From: Mobula hypostoma
Taxonomy: Eukaryota
Assembly (NCBI RefSeq): GCF_963921235.1
Contig: NC_086108.1
Location: forward strand, 54,872,001-54,936,000
DNA length: 64,000 nucleotides
Direction of reading: 5' to 3'
Part shown: positions 8,646-20,034 of the stretch, piece by piece
Layout of the letters: each line of letters begins with the position of its first letter
Numbering within the stretch: position 1 is the stretch's first letter
Notes under the pieces: generated by a model
Seen by the model: only the letters and a program-made list of their open reading frames with translations
Told to the model about the DNA's origin: nothing
Databases searched by the model: none
Program-made: the position numbers and the translations under genes

Positions 8646-9346
8646 GTGATCCCTGTTTCCATCCAGGAGGTCAGTGTGGACATGGTGGAGGATTACAAAT
8701 GCCTGGGGATACAAATTGACAATAAACTGGACTGGTCAAAGAACACCGAGGCTGTCTACAAGGAGGGTCAGAGCCGTTTCTATTTCCTGAGGAGACTGAG
8801 GTCCTTTAACATCTGCCGGACAATGCTGGGAATGTTCTACGAGTCTGTGGTGGCCAGTGCTATCATGTTTGTTGTTGTGTGCTGGGGCAGCAGGCTGAGG
8901 GTAGCAGACACCAACAGAATCAACAAACTCATTCGTAAGGCCAGTGATGTTCTGGGGATGGAACTGGACTCTCTGACGGTGGTGTCTGAAAAGAGGATGC
9001 TGTTGAAGTTGCATGCCATCTTGGACAATGTCTCCCATCCACTACATAATGTACTGGTGGGGCACAGGAGTACATTCAGCCAGAGACTCATTCCACCGAG
9101 ATGCAGCACTGAGCGTAATAGGAATTCATTCCTGCCTGTGGCCATAAAACTTTACAACTCCTCCCTTGGAGAGTCAGACACCCTGAGCCAATAGGCTGGT
9201 CCTGGACTTATTTCATAATTTCCTGGCATAATTTACATATTACTATTTAACTATTTATGGGTTCTATTACTATTTATTATTTATGGAGCAACTGTAACGA
9301 AAACCAATTTTCCCCGGGATTAATAAAGTATGACTATGACTATGAC
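8646..9346 (+). mobile_element. Rex1/Babar LINE 3' fragment inside Gypsy gag
   Basis: ORF 8610-9194 (YKCLGIQIDNKLDWSKNT...RFYFLRRLRSFN...SFLPVAIKLYN) and a (tatgac)n tail. Confidence 0.88.
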
Positions 9347-9699
9347 AATGTAAGGTTCCATAAATTACCCAATCTTTAATTCAACATTCAGCCACTACAG
9401 AACTGGTAGTCCTCAGACAATTTCTTCAATTCAGTCATGTAAGCTGAAATGATCTCCCCTTCCTTTTGATTGTGCTTATGAAACATAAAGCGTTCTGCAA
9501 TTACCAATGGCTTCAGATCTAAGTGTTCCTGCATTACTTTCATGACATCAGTAAAGCTTACTTAGGCTGGTTTGGTTGGAGCAGTTAAACTTATAAGGAA
9601 ACTGAGTTCATTTCCATCTATTACACTCAGCAACACTGGCACTCCCTTTGCAATGGTTATTTCATCTGCTTCACCTCTGTTTTTATGATTATTATCATC

Positions 9700-10158
9700 C
9701 TGTTTAGAAAGACTGGATCGGCTAGGCTTATACTCTCTGGAATTTAGAAGATTGAGGGGGGATCTTATTGAAACGTATAAAATCCTAAAGGGATTGGACA
9801 GGCTAGATGTAGGAAGATTGTTCCCGATGTTGGGTAAGTCCAGAACGATGGGTCACAGTTTGAGGATAAAGGGGAAGCCTTTTAGGACTGAGATGAGGAA
9901 AAACTTCTTCACACAGAGAGTGGTGAATCTGTGGAATTCTCTGCCACAGGAAACAGTTGAGGCCAGTTCATTGGCTGTATTTAAGAGGGAGTTAGATATG
10001 GCCCTTGTGGCTAAAGGGATCAGGGGGTATGGAGAGAAGGCAGGTACAGGGTTCTGAGTTGGATGATCAGCCATGATCGTACTGAATGGCGGTGCAGGCT
10101 CGAAGGGCCGAATGGCCTACTCCTGCACCTATTTTCTATGTTTCTATGTTTCTATGTT
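9700..10158 (+). mobile_element. CR1 LINE 3' fragment
   Basis: RGDLIETYKIL...FFTQRVVNLWNSLP, then a 3' UTR with a (tttctatg)n tail. Confidence 0.92.
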
Positions 10159-10217
10159 TATGAACCTGTGAATTATGGTTTGTAATTTTGTAATTATGGT
10201 TTGAATTATGGTTTGTA

Positions 10218-11668
10218 GAACTGGAGAATGGCTCATGTTGTTCCGTTGTTTAAAAAAGGATCGAGAAGTAATCCAGGAAATTATAGGCCAGTAAGTTTGA
10301 CGTCGGTAGTGGGTAAGTTATTGGAGGGAGTACTAAGAGACAGAATCTACAAGCATTTGGATAGACAGGGACTTATTAGGGAGAGTCAACATGGCTTTGT
10401 TCATGGTAGGTAATGTTTGACCAATCTATTGGAGTTTTTTGAGGAGGTTACCAGGAAAGTGGATGAAGAGAAGGCAGTGGATGTTGTCCACATGGACTTC
10501 AGTAAGGCCTTTGACAAGGTCCCGCATGGGAGGTTAGTTAGGAAAATTCAGTCATTAGATATACATGGAGAGGTGGTAAACTGGATTAGACATTGGCTCA
10601 ATGGAAGAAGCCGAAGAGTGGTAGTAGAGGATTGCTTCTCAGAGTGGAGGCCTGTGACTAGTGGTGTGCCAAAGGGATCAGTGCTGGGTCTGTTGCTATT
10701 TGTCATCTATATCAATGATCTGGATGATAATGTGGTAAATTGGATCAGCAAATTTGCTGATGATACAAAGATTGGAGGTGTAGTGGACAGTGAGGAAGGT
10801 TTTCAAAGCTTGCAGAGGGATTTGGAGCAATTGGAAAAGTGGGCTGAAAAATGGCAGGTGGAGTTTAATACAGACAAGTGTGAGGTATTGCACTTTGGAA
10901 GGACAAATCAAGGTAGAGCATACAGGGTAAGTGGTAAGGCACTGAGGAGTGCAGTAGAACAGAGGGATCTGGGAATTCAGATACAAAATTCCCTAAAAGT
11001 GGCGTCACAGGTAGATAGGGTCGTAAAGATAGCTTTTGGTACATTGGCCTTTATTAATCAAAGTATTGAGAATAAGAGCTGGAATGTTATGGTGAGGTTG
11101 TATAAGGCATGGGTGAAGCCGAATCTGGAGTATTGTGTTCAGTTTTGGTCACCAAATTACAGGAAGGATATTAATAAGGTTGAAAGAGTGCAGAGAAGGT
11201 TTACAAGGATGTTGCCGGGACTTGAGAAAGTGGGTTACAGAGAAAGGTTGAATAGGTTAGGACTTTATTCCCTGGAGCGTAGAAGAATGTGGGAGATTTG
11301 ATAAAGGTATATAAAATTATGATGAGTATAGATAGAGTGAATGCAAGCAGTATTTTTCCACTGAGGCAAGGGAAGAAAAAAACCAGAGGATATGGGTTAA
11401 GGGTGAGGGGGGAAAAGTTTAAAGGGAACATTAGGTGGGGCTTCTTCACACAAAGAGTGGTGGGAGTGTAGAATGAGCTGCCAGACGAGGTGGTAAATGC
11501 GGGTTCTTTTTTAACATTTAAGAATAAATTGGACAGATACATGGATGGGAGGTGTATGGAGGGATATGGCCCGTGTTCAGGTCAGTGGGACTAGGCAGAA
11601 AATGGTTCGGCACAGCCCAGAAGGGCCAAAAGGCCTGTTTCTGTGCTGTAGTTTTTCTATGTTTTCTA
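10218..11668 (+). mobile_element. CR1 LINE subfamily B, 5'-truncated
   Basis: NYRPVSLTS, DFSKAFD, GSVLG, KFADD motifs. Near-identical to 48352-49799 and 57544-59821. Confidence 0.95.
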
Positions 11669-11824
11669 ATTCCAGAACAGAATTCTAATCAAAAGATAAA
11701 CACAGGGCACTGGAGGTAATGTGTGTCTACTTAGTTTTTACTTCAGTGAGGCATGCATTTGTGATGTAATGACATAATGACGCATGCCATTCATATACTT
11801 TCACATATAACTCAATGAATTATG

Positions 11825-12431
11825 TAGAGTAGAGCTACTAGGACTTGACGTTTCAATCCGTATGGTAAGTTGGCACTCTCGATGTTGACAGTGGGTTTGG
11901 AGTGGTGACAAGGAGGGAGGGTAGGTATGTCATCGGGGTCATCAGGTGGGCACCCTCCTTCTTTGACGTTTTGTTGATAAGCCCACGACGTCTCCAGAGG
12001 GCTCAATGGTGCTACCTGGCGTCCCAGATACTCCCCCTTCAGTTCCATACCCTCCTGTCTTCTTTTTCAGCCCAGTTGTTGTCTTTCCTTTTAATATCAA
12101 TCCAATTGCTGCTTTCTTCTGCTGCATTTGACAAGGACTTGATTGTTTGTTGGAGGGAGTGACCCCTCACCCCCATTTTCTTCAATAGACTGGTCGTAGA
12201 TGTAGCAACGAATCCCCTGCATCCCACTTCTACAGGGAAAATCTTGGTCTTCCAGCCGTTCTGGGCAGCTTCAGTTGCCAGTTCAGAGTACTCGGTCTTT
12301 TTCTTCTCATAAGCTTCTTCAACACCATCTTCCCATGGTACTGTCGATTCCACAACGTATGCCAGCTTGGCTATTGTGGACCACAGGACCACGTCTGGCC
12401 GGAGTGTTGTAGCCGTAATGTCTGGGGGAAA
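11825..12431 (-). mobile_element. HERO-type (restriction-like endonuclease) non-LTR retrotransposon, 3' fragment
   Basis: ORF 12039-12434 (TLRPDVVLWS...VESTVPWE...KKKTEYSEL...GWKTKIFPVEVGCRGFV) has the PD-(D/E)xK RLE pattern. A 3' UTR and short (ctact)-like tail follow. It splits the Gypsy LTR. Confidence 0.85.
11929..12003 (-). ncRNA. Candidate permuted hammerhead-like ribozyme in the HERO 3' UTR
   Basis: Minus strand reads GACGUC^GUGGGC...AAAACGUC...GCCCAC-CUGAUGA. Helices I and III are perfectly complementary, GAAA reads AAAA, and helix II is weak. Confidence 0.55.
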
Positions 12432-13004
12432 CACAAGAATGCTTAGTCAAACAATATATTTACAATGTCATTCAAATATTACTGTAGTATGAAATACACA
12501 ACAATTTCCATGCCAGGACCACTGTTAACCACCGGTTTAAGATAATGAGCGGAGGGGAATGAAAATGTTTATGATCACCGTCCGTTGTTATGACTTGGAA
12601 TGTTCTACCCAGTAGCTTAGTGGGGAAGTAGATTCAATAGAATGAGAGAATTATAATTTTATTTGTTTAAAAAAACAACTTTGTAAAGCCTTAGGAAAGA
12701 GCAGGTTTGTGACTCTGATCAATTAGTCCTTGTTGGATGCAACACAGCCATTAGGCTTTTCTGTGCATCTTAGCCACAGAAATAGATAATCCTCCTGTGC
12801 TATAGTGGCCAACACCTTAATCCCACAGAAGTAATGGTAGTTAACTCCCATTTTCTGACTGCTTTAATATCCTGTTATACCCATTTAAAAAAATATTTAA
12901 ATGTAATAATGTTTATTTTTCCTCACTTATGTAGAATTTTCTTTTTAAAGGCCTTTGAACAGAAATCCTCCAAAAGGTAGTGGATTGGTCCAGTACTTCA
13001 TGGG

Positions 13005-13480
13005 TAAAGCCCTCCAACCATTGAGCACATCGACATGAAAAGCTGTCATAGGAAAGCAGCATCCATCAACAAAGATCCTCAGCACCCAGGACATGCCCTT
13101 TTCTCACTCCTGCCATCAGGTAGAAGGTACAAGAGCCACTGGACTCTCACACCAAGTTTAGGAACAGTTACTACCCCTCAACCATCAGGCTGTTGAATAA
13201 AAGGGGATAACCACACTCACTTGCTCCATTATTGAAATGTTCCTACAACCGATGATCTCACTTTAAGGACTCTATTTCATTATCTCTTGTTCTTGTTATT
13301 TATTGCTATTTATTTATATTTGCATTTGTACAAGTTGTCTTCTACACTCTGGTTGATCTTTCATTGATCTGTTATAGTTAACTATTCTATAGATTAGATG
13401 AGTATGCCCACAAGGAAATAAATCTCAGATTTATATATGGTGACATATATGTACCTGTGTAATAAAATTTACTTTGAACT
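13005..13480 (+). mobile_element. Rex1/Babar 3' fragment
   Basis: aaagcagcatccatc...ccatcaggtagaaggtacaagagc...aataaaatttactttgaactt, homologous to 2285-2390 and 2720-3080. Confidence 0.8.
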
Positions 13481-14239
13481 TCCTTTTAGATAAAATCTCC
13501 ATTACTATTCCCATCATGGCATTGGAGTGGGCCTTAACACCAAAACATTAAAGGTATCAGAAACTGTATTGTTTCATTGTCTCTAATATCGTATGCATCC
13601 TTTTTAGTTTTTACCTTGGCTGAGAGAGGTACTTACTGATAGGCTTATTTCTTTATCAACAAGTAAGTCTGAAATCAAGTATGCCTCTGTGTGATACCAT
13701 CTGTAGAATGGAATCAGCACACTGTTGCAGATTTTCATTGAACTTATTTAAATCAAATGTCAATATTGAATTATAGTTACTATGCTTTGCTGCTCATTGA
13801 TAAATGTGAAGATAGAATATAATAGTGTTTCAAAATCAATTATATCAAGCAAGGACAACATTTTATATATTATTTACATGATAACTAATATTTCCACAAT
13901 GATCTTGATTTTTTTTTGGTTCATTTTTAATTTCAATTGGAGATTACTCAATAGAGCACAATGTGACTGATGCGCATGTGCGTAAGAACTCTCAGGAGCA
14001 GCAAAGGAAAATTTCAAACACAATGACTAGAGTCAGAAGAATATTACAATCTAATCTTGATGCAAGGTGGAAATGGTTCTATATCTGGCAGATGGCATTT
14101 AGAGTTGAAAAAAGCATTGTTACTGTTATGGACAGGATTAATACCAAGAATATAATTATGATATGTGGAAGGGTACAGCACCTTTCAGGCATTTGGCTCA
14201 GGACATCATGCTGATCTTGTTGCCAATTTAATATCTTAC

Positions 14240-17200
14240 TCCTATGTATCATCTGTGCACATATTCCTGTGTCATTGATATATATCAGAGGCCCCAACAC
14301 GGATCCTTGCAGACCACTACTGGTCACGGGCCTCCAGACAGAATAACATTCTTGCACATTTTTTTTATGGGGGAAACTAGTTCTGAATCCAAACTTGCAA
14401 TTCACCCTGGAGACTATGTACCATTATCTTCTGAATCAATCTACTCTGAGGGACCTTATTAAAGTCCATACTGATAACATCAACTATGAAGCACCTTTAT
14501 CACCTCCTCAAAAAAAATTCTATCAATTTTATAAGGCATGGCCCAGCCTGCAAAAGCATGCTACTGTACCTAAGCAGGCAATGTTTTTCCATATATGCAT
14601 TAATCCTATCCTTTAAGAGGTGACAAAAGGGTGTACAGGAATGAGATATACCAGCTAGTTGAATGGTGTCACAGAAACAACCTTGCACTCAATGTCGGCA
14701 AGACCAAAGAGCTAACTGTGGATTTCAGAAAGGGTAAGATGACGGAACACACACCAGGCCTCACAGAGGGATCAGAACTGGATCATCAGCTCTCCTTTAG
14801 ACATCTTCTCATGTTAGATGTGGACTTGTCTGACAGCAGCTGCTCCCAATCAACATTCCTTAGCTCCTACCTTATCTTGTCATAATTTGCCTTCCCCAAT
14901 TTAGTACCTTTTCACAAGATCCAATTATATCTTTACTCTTAACTATCTTAAAACATAATGAGCTGTGGTCCCTAGTCACATGGTCACATTATTCGCTCTG
15001 TCACCTGCCCTGCCTCCCCCAATGTCTAGTATCAAAGTTCAAAGTACATTTATTATCAGGGTGTATATAACATGTACAACCTTAAGATTTACCTTCTGGC
15101 AGGCAGCCACAAAACATAGAAGTAATAGAATCCACAAAAAACCCCACCCAACAAAGACTGTCAAACATCCAATGAACAAAGAAAGAACAAAACGTGCAAA
15201 CAATAAAAAAAGTAAACAAATAATATACAGAACATGAACCGCAGAGTTCCTGCAAGTGAGTCCACAGCCATGGAACCAGTTCAGTGCTGAGGCGAGTGAA
15301 GCCTTACAGAGTTATGAGCTGAACACTGGTTGATCTTTGACCTCAGCCTCGACGTCTTAATCTTTTTAATTTCGTTCGGCACTTAAATCAGATGAACATT
15401 GGCTAATGTATGTTTTGTCCCCTAGCTGGATTCTCCATATACTGTTTCAAAAACCCCTCTTGGATGCACTGAAGAAATACCGCCCCATCTAAGCTTCTTG
15501 TATTAAGGAAGTTCCAATCAATACTGTGAAGTTAAAGCTTCCCACTATGACAAACCTGTCGTTTCTGCATTTTTCCATAATCTGCCGACATAACTGTTCC
15601 TCCTCCTTTCTGTGGCTATTGGATGGCCTAAAGTATAATCCCATCAGCATAATTACACCTATCCTATTTCTGAGCTCCACCCAAACTGCACTTGTTTGAT
15701 TTTCACTTATCAGTAGTGCAAGCCCTTCACCTCTTTTACCCCCACCCCCTGTATCACATCTAAAACAACAAAACGTAGGACTATTGAGTTGCCATTCCTG
15801 CCTGTCCCTTTCACGCCCAGGTCTCTGTTATGGAAACAACATCATAATTCCATATATTGATCCAGGCTTTACGTTCATCCTCTTTTTCCATAATATTCCT
15901 AACATTAAAATAAGCACATGTCAGCCTATCAGTCCTGCTACATTTATTAGTCTGTGCCTTGCTGTTCTTTTCACTTTTACTTGTCATACCACCTTTCTTG
16001 TACCTGTTGCTCTGCTACTGTGGTTCTCATCCCCCTGCCACTAGTTAATCCCTCCAAAGCAGCACCAGCAAACCACCCAGTGAGGATCATGGTTATTCAG
16101 ATGAAAACTGTCTTGTTTGTGGGGTTGTAGCTGCCCTGAAAGAGAGCCAAATGGTCTATAAATTTGAAGTGCTCCCTCCTGTATCTGCTCCTTAGCCACA
16201 TATTGAACTCATAGTCATACTTTGTCGATCCCGGGGGAAACTGGTTTTCGTTACAGTTGCACCATAAATAATTAAATAGTAATTAAATAGAACTGCATGC
16301 TGTATCCATTTCTCACCTCACATATGAGATTACAACCCGAAGTCCTGCTTTTTAATTTTATGCCTAGCTCCCTAAAACCCTTTTGCAGGTCCTTATCCCT
16401 ACTGCTGCTAGTCCACGTCATTGGTTCCATCAGTATCTAAAGAGGCATGTCTATTGGTAAGGGGAATGTCCACAAGGTGTGTCCAGTCTGTTAGCTGAGT
16501 GAACATCGCAGAGCTGTAGTGTACCACCCTGGTAAAGGTTTCACTGTTAATGTGATGCTCTTTCTGTCGAAGCAGTGTTTGGGTTATGGTTAGAGATAAC
16601 GAGTGCTTTGGAATGTGAGCTGTCCAATCGGGAGTGGGTTTTATTTTTCTGTGCCTGACACTGGTATGAGCTGAAGGGTCTTTGTTCAGTGGGAAATGGA
16701 GAGAGAAGAAGCTGGAGAGAACTGGTCATAGGGTTTGAGCTGGTGGGAGATCATGATTCGATGGAGCAAGGTGCAGAGGTCAACTGAGGATCGGTGAATA
16801 TGACTTTTGGAAGAGTTGAGCTCCAACTTGTGCACATTTGACTGTTTAATTGTAATGGGCCCTTTTTGTTTTTCTTTCTTTTCTTTACTAACCCTATAGT
16901 TAAGCTAACATTCATAAATATAGTTCCTTTATTCGTATGCAGTGTGCTGTCTGTTATTTCTTGGCACCAAGTTGTAACAAGGTAGCAAATTACACAGCAT
17001 CCATACAAACCGGTGTTTGGGGTAGGAGAGCCGTGCCAATCTCACAGATTTGGTGGGACTGGAGTGTGTATTCCCTAGATTTACGCAGCCCAAGGAAACG
17101 AGGGTTTCAGTAGTCATTAGGGAGACTGCAAGGTTCCTTGCCTGTTCACGTCTTACAGGAGGGGCATTCCGCTGCCCTCCTGCAAGATGTGGGCAGTCAG

Positions 17201-17480
17201 AGAACTGGTGCAGGTACCTCAGGTGCACCTCAGAGAGATGGGTGTCCAGCAGGAGAAGTAAGATGAGTCAGCAGAGTGCAATAATGATAAAATGATATCC
17301 TTTTATCTACACTGTCAAAGATCATAGATTAACAGGAAAATAAAATTCTTACCTGAATCTTATTTGCCATTCACCTGTGCCTCCTCACCAAAACTTCTCA
17401 AGGAAAAACATCATCTCCCCATTCCAACACTGGCCTACTATCATGATGGCCACTCTGCTCAAATCTACTTTCTTTTCATT
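14240..17480 (-). mobile_element. Old degraded CR1 (RT, EN, ORF1 and 5' UTR relics) with nested Rex fragments and a solo LTR
   Basis: WRPVTSSGLQGSVLGP (about 14300) and ELRNRIG...YFRPSNS...VGSFN (15489-15680). The 5' UTR at 17350-17465 resembles 31690-31797. Rex pieces lie at 14620-14780 (+), 15030-15400 (-) and 16208-16290 (-). Confidence 0.65.
16520..17109 (+). mobile_element. Solo LTR (family X)
   Basis: TG...CA termini with a 4-bp TSD GTAG (16516-16519 and 17110-17113). Homologous to 1010-1575. Confidence 0.9.
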
Positions 17481-18219
17481 GGTAAAGTGTATAGCAACTC
17501 AAACAATAGAAACAAATAACTTCTTCAGAGTTGCTGTCTCCTCCCTGCTGCTTCTCTGGCTGCAACAATTGTTGAGAGAAAAACGCTGGATGGTCAGTTT
17601 AAGTCTGTTGGGTGAGACCTCTACCTAGAAAGTCTTAACTTGGGGAGCTTGATTTTAGGGTAAGTGATCAACAGTTTAGGATAGAAATAAGAAGAAATGT
17701 TTGAATGGCTGTAAGTTCTTGGAATCCTCTGAGAAATAGGATACTCCATCATCATGTACATATTTTGGACATTAAGGAAATTGAAGGAAATGGTGGGAAA
17801 GTGGTTGGAGTACAGAATTAACTGTAGTCTTTTTGAATTGCAGAGCAACATGAGAAGCTCGAAGGCTTAGTGCTTTCTCTATATTCTGATATGTATGTCT
17901 CTAAAGATTTGGGGCCTGCACTGAGAGGATTAAGAAAAAGGAAATCATTAAAAAGGAATGCTGAAACGATCCAATATTACACAAAAAAACTACAGTATTT
18001 TAGTTATTTTTGACACCAGGTTTTGGCTTAGTTTTAGAAGTGATGTCAGTTCTGGTTTCCTAGATATACTTCTTTGAAAGAGTATTATTGAAGTACAAAC
18101 TAGGCAGTTAGATCTTTTTGTTCAGGAAAAGTGGTGACAGTTGAAATACTTAAAATGATGAACATTCAGATTCATTCCATATGATCAGGGTAATTGAATT
18201 TAATTATAGGGCAACAAGT

Positions 18220-18531
18220 CTTCCAAGAGGACCACAACCTTGTCATAGGGTTTGGAGGCTTGCATGCCTCAATAACCAGGAGAGCTATATTGGCTTTGTG
18301 CTTTGGCTCTTGGTAGGGTCACTCGTGCCAAACAAGTCAAAGGGTAGAGGCCAGCTTAAGAGCGGTCCACCGGTCCTCCAGGTTTAGAGGTTCAGTTCAG
18401 GGCTAACAAGCCTGACTAGTCAGAATAAATTGTCATGGAAACAGCAATGAAGAATCCTTCTGTACAGACAGAGATGAAGGTCCTTCATTGCTGTCCTAAA
18501 TGCCAGTGGTGTAATGGGCAGTAAGTAAACA
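18220..18531 (+). mobile_element. Bipartite non-autonomous RTE derivative (5' UTR joined to 3' end)
   Basis: The 5' part matches the RTE 5' UTR at 43370-43590 (-) and the 3' part matches the RTE end at 37383-37430 (-). Imperfect 14-bp TSD atagggcaacaagt/acagagcaacaagt. Confidence 0.85.
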
Positions 18532-19734
18532 ACAGAGCAACAAGTAGAATTGCATGTAAATTACATAGCTAAAACTAGGGTGATTTTTGATTTTTACATA
18601 GGATCACTGAACTTTGGAATCTAGCTGACTAGTGAGTGCAAATTTGCTGATACTTCATGGGAAAACTGGATGAGTTTCTGGAGGAGTGTAATATAGTGTG
18701 AAAAAGGTAAGCACCATAGTGTCACAGACAAGAGAAAATCTACAGATGCTGGAAATCCAAGCAGTACACACAAAATGCTGGAGGAACTCAGCAGGTCAGG
18801 CAGCAGTTATGGAAAAAAGTACAGTTGACGTTTTGGGCCGAAACCCTTCGACAGAATGTGGTGTAATGTGCTTTGTGGTTATTGTAATATTTTAAACTCA
18901 TCTTTGAATTGATTTGAGAATAACAATTTTCAACAATGACATTTTTTCTCTCTGAAATGCTCCAACATTGTTGTCTTTTTTTTTTTGCCGGCTTGATGGC
19001 TGTTGGTTTGTGTTGGATTTCACGTTGCCAAGATTAAACATGACTGTTCTGTATTTTCAAATGTTGATGCAAAATAATCAAAAAAAGGCAAGCAGATAAA
19101 AACTGCACAGCTGGAAGATTTGGCTCCACTGTATTTCAGTGTTCCAAGCACTGCACTGGTTCTGCTTGTGTCTGGCATTTGGGTATACATTTGTTGTGTA
19201 GCTTTTCTGGCTGACACACTTATAAATGTGTGCTGGAAGTATAAAGTGTAGGCAGATCAAGACATCAATCGAAATGTAATCCTTATTTGATACCAGTGCT
19301 CCAAATTAGAACAGAATGATCCAGCTAATATCTTACTTCAGCCTTGTGTTACGAAACATGCGTCAACTACAAGCAGCAGGATGAGGGGGAAGGTACTAAT
19401 GTATAACGTGCCAATTCTTCAAACTCATTTCAGCACAGAAACCCCTACTTTGCTGAGAGCCAAGAGAACCACAGAACTTATCAAGAAGGGAGGATGCATC
19501 AGGACCTGATGGAGGGGGCATCTTAAAAAAACCTCTTATCCTTTGATGCAATATTCTTTGACTTCATACCACTAAAAACTATTTGATCCATATTCACTAA
19601 CAAACCTGGACTGACAAGACTCTGAAAGACTATATTCTCAGGAGCAGCTAGTACTCTGTTGCTGTAAAACTTGGTGGAGAGAAAATTCACATAGAGGGGG
19701 ACTTCAGATACAAATTCACAACTGGGAGGAAGAC

Positions 19735-19953
19735 TGTTATGTTTTTGTAACTCCAGAAACTAATTGAAAGAAAAATACAGAAGCCTGGAAAAACTTGTCC
19801 ACTTCATTTTTTTTGGGTGAGGTGCTCACATATGACGTGTTGGTGTAATGACATATGTCATTCATGTATCTCTTACATAATATAACCTGCAAGCAAAGAA
19901 TGTTTAATCAAACAAAATCTTTGCAATATTACTGAAATATTAAATACACTACA
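19735..19953 (-). mobile_element. Solo LTR of the Gypsy family at 3363-12503
   Basis: tgttatg...tacactaca, homologous to 3363-3607. Flanks aagac/aagaa form a 5-bp TSD with one mismatch. Confidence 0.8.
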
Positions 19954-20034
19954 AAGAAAACATTCTGCAGGCCCATAGAGGCATGATGTACTTCAAGAAA
20001 GTTGAATTTGATTTCAATATCTAGAGGGGCTTTC

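Follow-up and report, generated by a model that had tools for sequence, protein, structure and literature searches.

A conserved pseudoknotted fold with a hammerhead core 3′ of the open reading frame of HERO-like retrotransposons

In a 64,000-nt stretch of the genome of Mobula hypostoma (assembly GCF_963921235.1, contig NC_086108.1, positions 54,872,001–54,936,000; hereafter the window, to which all coordinates refer unless a locus is named), a truncated copy of a retrotransposon without long terminal repeats (non-LTR) carries, on the minus strand and directly 3′ of its open reading frame (ORF), a motif of about 100 nt (12037–11935) with the core of a hammerhead ribozyme. The motif belongs to a conserved fold whose stems covary among distant relatives and which stands after the ORF. 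We consider it likely that the stretch is a decayed copy of a ribozyme conserved in a HERO-like clade of elements with a restriction-like endonuclease (RLE), and that intact copies cut themselves. The same fold is kept by distant relatives, which suggests both a new layout and a new home for the hammerhead.

Block order and recurrence in relatives

Read on the minus strand, the core runs GACGUC|GUGGGC, then AAAACGUC, then GCCCAC-CUGAUGA, i.e., the cleavage-site strand, the (G)AAA strand and the CUGANGA strand, an order that cannot be drawn without pseudoknots. This order, together with the letters and coordinates of helices I and III and of the CCCUC/GAGGG pairing, had been noticed by a model that saw only the letters of the window and their ORFs (hereafter, the sequence-only reading), and it is borne out in full. 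The span then given, 11929–12003, proved too short. Helices I and III of that description are likewise real; it lacked four further elements, namely helix E, which closes the motif, hairpin F, helix B and a joint resembling a kink-turn. The parts of the motif, in hammerhead numbering where applicable, are as follows.

12034–12037, minus strand: helix E, 5′ strand GGGG, pairing with CCCC at 11938–11935; closes the whole motif; only 4 bp in the window's subgroup
12008–12033, minus strand: hairpin F, stem GUAUCUGG/CCAGGUAG.., loop GACG, between E and stem II
12003–12007, minus strand: stem II, 5′ strand, GUUGA in the family and AUUGA in the window (G10.1 to A at 12007), pairing with 11977–11973
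11996–12002, minus strand: helix B, 5′ strand GCCCUCU, pairing with GGAGGGU at 11958–11952; links stems I and II at their far ends
11993–11995, minus strand: GGA, the non-bulged strand of the kink-turn-like joint of B and stem III (G-A here and NNN-G-A opposite in 28 of 34 relatives)
11988–11992, minus strand: stem III, 5′ strand GACGU, ending in G16.2 U16.1, pairing with ACGUC at 11969–11965
11987, minus strand: C17, with the predicted cut between 11987 and 11986 (the GUC triplet is 11989–11987)
11981–11986, minus strand: stem I, 5′ strand GUGGGC, pairing with GCCCAC at 11951–11946
11973–11980, minus strand: A/U-rich linker UUA (1–6 nt and mostly A/U among relatives) and stem II, 3′ strand UCAAC, ending in C11.1
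11965–11972, minus strand: G12 A13 A14 (AAA in the window, G12 to A at 11972) and stem III, 3′ strand ACGUC
11959–11964, minus strand: AAAGAA, a 3-nt bulge, G-A and N, the bulged strand of the kink-turn-like joint
11952–11958, minus strand: helix B, 3′ strand GGAGGGU
11939–11951, minus strand: stem I, 3′ strand GCCCAC, and CUGAUGA (C3 to A9, 11945–11939)
11935–11938, minus strand: helix E, 3′ strand CCCC, immediately after A9
11847–11854, minus strand: a second GAAACGUC, able in principle to pair with the 5′ strand of stem III; a feature of the window's subgroup

Relatives were represented by 78 loci on metagenome contigs, at 29–76% protein identity. A pattern finder that demanded CUGANGA, a stem I of at least 4 bp next to U-H, GAAA, and a stem III of at least 3 bp, with the blocks in any order, returned an identical order and spacing in 37 instances from 36 of these loci, all of them on the sense strand and just 3′ of the ORF. 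The covariance model R1, whose structure consists of helices B and III only, gave 60 matches at E ≤ 1 in 79 sources, on the sense strand without exception; it scores the window at 54.4 bits (E 4e-11) and matches 44 of the 53 loci that extend at least 190 nt past the stop codon. Intact cores are found in elements with long open ORFs (L064 twice, L059, L055, and L067; each more than 1100 aa).

The architecture common to the relatives comprises, in its 5′ half, E, hairpin F, the 5′ strand of stem II (starting with G10.1), B, (N)GA, the 5′ strand of stem III, H17, and the 5′ strand of stem I. The 3′ half continues with a short A/U linker, the 3′ strand of stem II, GAA, the 3′ strand of stem III, NNN-GA-N, B′, the 3′ strand of stem I, CUGANGA, and E′.

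On several metagenome contigs, related elements stand head to tail (L064, 85–7266; L066; L088; L049; L082). L064 has two copies, 68% identical, each with a long open ORF (>1100 aa) followed by the motif, and the diverged terminal repeats of the other four (93–99% identical) delimit units of 3.66–3.84 kb. This layout suggests insertion beside existing copies, or arrays; in it, the motif sits 90–250 nt ahead of the next ORF.

A second GAAAC with a stem III 3′ strand lies 60–90 nt 3′ of CUGANGA in some elements (11847–11854 in the window, about 4002–4010 in L055, about 2084–2092 in L004). It tracks each element's own stem III, reading GAAACGUC in the window and GAAACACC in L055, whose own stem III strand is GGUGU, and could compete with the ribozyme fold by offering stem III another partner. 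Minimum free energy (MFE) folding of single 3′ untranslated regions (UTRs) was uninformative, yielding nested folds that differ from copy to copy.

Covariation of the stems and state of the core

In alignment A3 (34 rows), 88.9% of the cells are paired, versus 62.3% after shuffling (none of 500 shuffles was as high) and 36–46% when the strands are slid; both partners change in 20 of 24 pairs. In A4, the alignment of the R1 matches (57 distinct rows), the values are 89.6% paired versus 62.4% shuffled and 37–43% slid, with 22 of 24 pairs changing on both sides. All three hammerhead stems contribute. Stem I is about 84% paired (83.6% in A4), with both-side changes at 6/6 pairs; stem II is 87.7–89.7% paired (87.7% in A4; 4/5 pairs); and stem III is 96.3–96.7% paired (4–5 of 6 pairs). 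Stems I and II thus pair in A4 although they are outside the structure of R1. Helix B is paired in 86.5–90.4% of cells, with both-side changes at 6–7 of its 7 pairs. The proposal that a non-circularly permuted hammerhead core resides in the 3′ UTR of an RLE retrotransposon, with covariation of helices I–III across families as its suggested check, therefore stands.

The location of stem II had to be revised. The sequence-only reading had matched UUAUC to GAUGA, further downstream; in the various families, the strand preceding GAAA finds its partner upstream, and in the window UCAAC (11977–11973) pairs with AUUGA (12007–12003). Nor does a stem II strand directly follow A9: helix E comes after A9, and G10.1 comes after hairpin F. 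A helix E of at least 6 bp (median 10), running from the base after A9 to the start of hairpin F, is formed in 25 of 32 relatives, as compared with 10 of 96 in a shifted control. Between E and G10.1, almost all of the 34 relatives fold a single hairpin, whose sequence differs from one to another.

The kink-turn consensus consists of a regular stem, a 3-nt bulge, tandem G-A/A-G pairs, and a second stem. As a sequence signature (GA/GA and a 3-nt bulge), a kink-turn-like joint is present in 28 of 34 relatives.

Conservation of the CUGANGA box across the 57 distinct rows is high (C3 in 50, U4 in 55, G5 in 55, A6 in 54, G8 in 52, A9 in 56), and position N7 is variable in A4 (U 29, C 16, A 8, G 3). 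In the second box, G12 is G in 51 of 57 rows, and A13 and A14 are each A in 54. The A15.1–U16.1 pair is UA in 52 of 55 rows, and the C15.2–G16.2 pair is nearly fixed, with G16.2 and U16.1 each conserved in 54 of 57. At position 17, G is absent from all 56 rows (C 23, A 17, U 16). In 54 rows, the G10.1–C11.1 pair occurs as GC (43), GU (6), or another combination (5), and C3/G8 occurs as CG (49 rows), UA (3), or UG (2). The box is UUGACAA, with U3 facing A8, at L045:48–127, L049:1552–1631, and L048:3770–3846, and UUGAAGA, with U3 facing G8, in a related lineage (L047:2212–2291 and L052:2162–2241). The U3–A8 combination looks like a compensated form of what we take, from the hammerhead literature, to be the C3–G8 tertiary pair.

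In the 65 family copies that the model matched, position G12 is occupied by G (58), A (6), or C (1); hence the cAAAAc of the window is a decayed cGAAAc, as had been surmised. G10.1 is G in 52 of the 65 copies. All 14 core positions are kept in 37 of them, and the losses are concentrated at two CpG sites. With A at both G10.1 and G12, the window copy should be inactive and is probably a dead relic, in line with the earlier suspicion.

Proposed cleavage, known hammerheads, and competing explanations

From the connectivity of the strands and the known geometry of hammerheads and kink-turns, stems I and II would lie side by side between the core junction below and the helix B junction above, and stem III would be folded onto B by the kink-turn-like GA motif. 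At the A9/G10.1 step, a perfect four-way junction would form, in which the core pairs G8–A13 and A9–G12 stack on stem II and E stacks on F, so that the core may be left intact. We infer self-cleavage itself from the sequence; in intact copies, it is predicted to occur after C17 (11987|11986 in the window). The cut would yield the ORF-bearing RNA and a 3′ piece of about 160 nt, the two still paired via II, III, B, and E. The role we favour is that of processing the element's co-transcripts, whether these are tandem or arise by read-through: standing ahead of the next ORF in the head-to-tail layout, the motif could cut co-transcripts into units.

Martick et al. reportedly described, in 2008, a discontinuous hammerhead in the 3′ UTRs of rodent Clec2 genes, with the classical strand order and in a host gene. 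The present motif likewise lies in a 3′ UTR, between the stop codon and the 3′ end of the RNA, but its order is permuted and it resides in a mobile element. Rfam 15 scans of window positions 9000–20000 (E up to 10) and of eight loci with intact motifs (E up to 1) gave no hammerhead match at the motif.

The closest known structures are the type-SGC hammerheads, described along with the HRIMA-1 motif and type-SGC variants (Eckert, Friedrich, Weinberg and Weinberg, Nucleic Acids Research (NAR), 2023; PMC10085705), of which five were shown to cleave in vitro at the predicted site. Reports of rearranged hammerheads, which the sequence-only reading had mentioned, thus do exist, though all those of this paper come from assembled metatranscriptomes (its Supplementary Note 1), not from this element family, and are linked there to virus-like circular RNAs. 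Type SGC and the present motif have in common the block order (site, GAAA, CUGAnGA), a short linker between stems I and II (about 3 nt in type SGC, 1–6 nt here), an extra stem that ties stems I and II on their other sides (helix B here), and at least two pseudoknots in the core; in type SGC, the link from stem III to the extra stem measures 0–44 nt (PMC10085705). In type SGC, block C is uninterrupted, its stem I strand running through CUGAnGA into the stem II strand, and a row of the supplement shows CUGAUGA passing directly into stem II (PMC10085705). In contrast, the stem II strand of the present motif is upstream, CUGANGA is followed by the closing helix E, with hairpin F, and stem III and B are joined on both strands via the kink-turn-like motif. 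In effect, the present motif would be a type SGC that was circularised and then reopened between A9 and G10.1. Its host is an animal retrotransposon; in the type-SGC paper, “kink” and “k-turn” do not occur in the main text, and “retrotransposon” occurs only in reference lists (PMC10085705).

Other ribozymes are also known from retroelements. The classical type I–III hammerheads of retrozymes and Penelope-like elements (PMC4209133, PMC7229834) also place a hammerhead core in a retroelement and cut multimeric transcripts, and several of the present relatives are likewise arranged head to tail. They are nested three-way junctions in terminal repeats of elements that have a GIY-YIG endonuclease or are non-autonomous, whereas the present motif is pseudoknotted and located in the 3′ UTR of an autonomous RLE element. 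The ribozymes resembling that of hepatitis delta virus (HDV) at the 5′ end of R2 and other non-LTR elements (PMC3774820) are also self-cleaving RNAs in an RLE-type element, where they presumably process co-transcripts, but they belong to a different ribozyme class and occupy the opposite end of the element.

Several observations weigh against self-cleavage by intact copies. The seed instances were picked by a filter demanding CUGANGA, GAAA, U-H, and short helices I and III, and hence the invariance of these boxes in the seed is by construction; the filter did not force the C15.2–G16.2 and G10.1–C11.1 pairs, the lack of G17, the free N7, or the U3/A8 lineage. Six of the 21 matches outside the seed keep the entire core and the other 15 have at least one core change, which would also be expected from the decay of dead copies. 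One lineage has UUGACAA or UUGAAGA instead of CUGANGA. The backbone link from A9 to G10.1, which the authors of type SGC assumed to be uninterruptible (PMC10085705), is broken by helices E and F. No motif is seen in 9 of the 53 relatives with at least 190 nt past the stop codon, and an unfiltered search of eight of these and of four further distant loci returned only noise (at most 10.5 bits). Many genomic copies extend upstream of the cut site, so that uncut RNA is the usual template. In a small sample of 30 copies retrieved by a search with the 3′ 160 nt, not one has its 5′ end at the cut site and two start 5–8 nt upstream of it, which lends no support to cut RNA being a frequent template. 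As the sampled copies in the window's genome are dispersed and were made from uncut RNA, cutting would have to be slow, regulated, or not required for copying.

A rival explanation, which we consider unlikely overall, is that of a conserved, non-cutting, hammerhead-derived pseudoknotted structure of the 3′ UTR, recognised by the element's protein for target-primed reverse transcription, as the R2 protein binds its 3′ UTR. It accounts for the location immediately past the stop codon, in the part of the RNA that such elements bind, and for genomic copies made from uncut RNA; the interrupted A9/G10.1 step and the existence of the U3 lineage fit it as well, and pseudoknotted RNA is mentioned for R2Tg (PMC12222951). 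A binding site, however, needs no exact catalytic letters of a hammerhead: it has no need to bar G at position 17 while N7 varies, or to keep G10.1–C11.1 and C3–G8 with its U3–A8 variant. The two roles are mutually compatible. Chance resemblance in a G/C-patchy 3′ UTR is, in our opinion, scarcely credible. A relaxed pattern (NAAA allowed, perfect helix I of at least 6 bp, helix III of at least 5 bp, any order within 150 nt) finds this locus only in the 64-kb window, and as 6 of 200 dinucleotide shuffles of the window yield at least one match as good, the pattern by itself is only suggestive; the MFE folds of single copies also differ. What takes the motif beyond chance is its recurrence in distant relatives, with compensatory changes and on the sense strand only.

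Two readings would make the motif a known type of hammerhead, and we hold both to be very improbable. Given the shared block order, the short linker between stems I and II, and the extra stem joining them, it could be taken for an ordinary member of the published type SGC, with stem II formed by the strand after CUGANGA. That strand, however, pairs far upstream, in helix E, and not with the strand before GAAA, which itself pairs with the upstream strand beginning at G10.1; in the variant row of the type-SGC supplement, the stem II strand comes directly after CUGAUGA (PMC10085705). Alternatively, a canonical type III hammerhead could use the second GAAAC(G)UC, 90 nt downstream, with the long insert as stem II, as the window's subgroup does have a second GAAAC and a strand that follows each element's own stem III. 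When this was checked by hand, no stem II was found to close beside the core, CCCC facing AUU and then GGG. The downstream copy is missing from L084 and from other families, and in family B (most copies of the family, see below), it reads GAAACAUC, mismatched to GACGU. The type III fold was rejected as having no stem II and not being general.

Self-cleavage by intact copies thus remains the reading that we favour. In a fuller form, to which we are inclined to give neither more nor less credit than to its opposite, the motif would be an active ribozyme with a new hammerhead topology, in which a four-way junction parts CUGANGA from stem II and a kink-turn closes the ring; it would be ancestral and functionally required in HERO-like retrotransposons from molluscs to fish, would process their transcripts, and would leave a cut but paired product to be handled by the element's protein. 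If so, the assumption that none of the three hammerhead blocks may be interrupted would no longer hold as a working rule, and RLE retrotransposons would gain a 3′ ribozyme to match the HDV-like one at the 5′ end.

Regardless of this, the motif is a real, further variant of the hammerhead, and searches of open PMC papers and bioRxiv found no earlier report of its split CUGANGA block or its animal retrotransposon host, nor any that connects hammerheads to HERO or RLE elements. To date, one set of metatranscriptome hammerheads has provided the documented cases of a non-circularly permuted RNA fold; the present motif would add a second, more radical rearrangement with a split core block, a host in animal genomes with thousands of copies, and a defined genetic context directly 3′ of the ORF of an autonomous retrotransposon. 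The covariance model can be used to search for the motif in fish, amphioxus, and mollusc genomes. The observations are also relevant to R2-like elements, now being engineered to insert genes, and to how their RNA matures and is recognised.

Of 24 runs available as Logan contigs, none of which is on record as RNA, the four that were examined have contigs covering the motif. At place 1954 of L004, the contigs of two runs from different organisms share a copy with a flank junction one base past the predicted cleavage site.

The host element and its family

Two features delimit the element in the window.

about 12437 to 11824, minus strand: 5′-truncated retrotransposon copy, matched over 12437–11828 by 30 genomic copies at 94–95% identity; copies have varying 5′ ends and a common 3′ end
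12039–12446, minus strand: end of the ORF, with the tail of a restriction-like endonuclease (...RPD..E(S/L)TVPWE..K...), in a 135-codon open frame; stop codon TGA at 12041–12039

We scored 40 of 1869 first-look candidate copies in the genome (3.48 Gb, 200 contigs), and all of them are 93–95% identical to window positions 12437–11828. Family copies have the common 3′ end ...GTAGCTCTAC(TCTAC)n and differing 5′ ends, the pattern of 5′-truncated non-LTR retrotransposons; in the window, ...GTAGCTCTAC ends at 11829 and is followed by one additional TCTAC, to 11824.

A Pfam search with the 135-aa ORF tail alone retrieved no family, and RVT_1 was obtained only with longer copies. These contain, in order, the RVT_1 reverse transcriptase (RT; E 6.1e-15), a CxxC...HxxxxC motif, and the same RPD...E...K tail as the window. 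The protein homologues are RT proteins of 1080–1180 aa from teleosts (the best, at 84%, from an eel), sturgeon, lamprey, amphioxus, and bivalves. In alignment A1 of 16 full-length homologues, C858, C861, H869, and C874 are invariant, and the endonuclease tail has R969, P970, D971, E986, and K1002. A single ORF in which RT is followed by a CCHC motif and, after it, a restriction-like endonuclease is the make-up expected of the HERO clade, names of whose reference elements are listed in PMC7650587. In domain make-up and host range, the element fits a HERO-like assignment.

The long copy L038 ends, on its 5′ side, at about residue 109 of a homologue, where it abuts another repeat. The repeat flanking the 5′ end of the long copy (L151:959–1402) is very abundant in this genome, with 1565 first-look candidates and copies of about 443 bp that are 95–99% identical.

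Most copies of the family (family B) have one extra base near the end of the ORF, and as a result their stop codon occurs about 24 nt earlier (...NNWAAR*). The window copy and L003 form a distinct subfamily, with the ORF ending in ...EDRRVWN*. A second, distant family of RLE retrotransposons is present in the same genome (L153:2447–2530, minus strand; contig C5 near 164.246 Mb), at 35–44% protein identity to P0004. Its motif lies about 50 nt 3′ of the ORF and scores 53.9 bits, and position 17 is G in this decayed copy.

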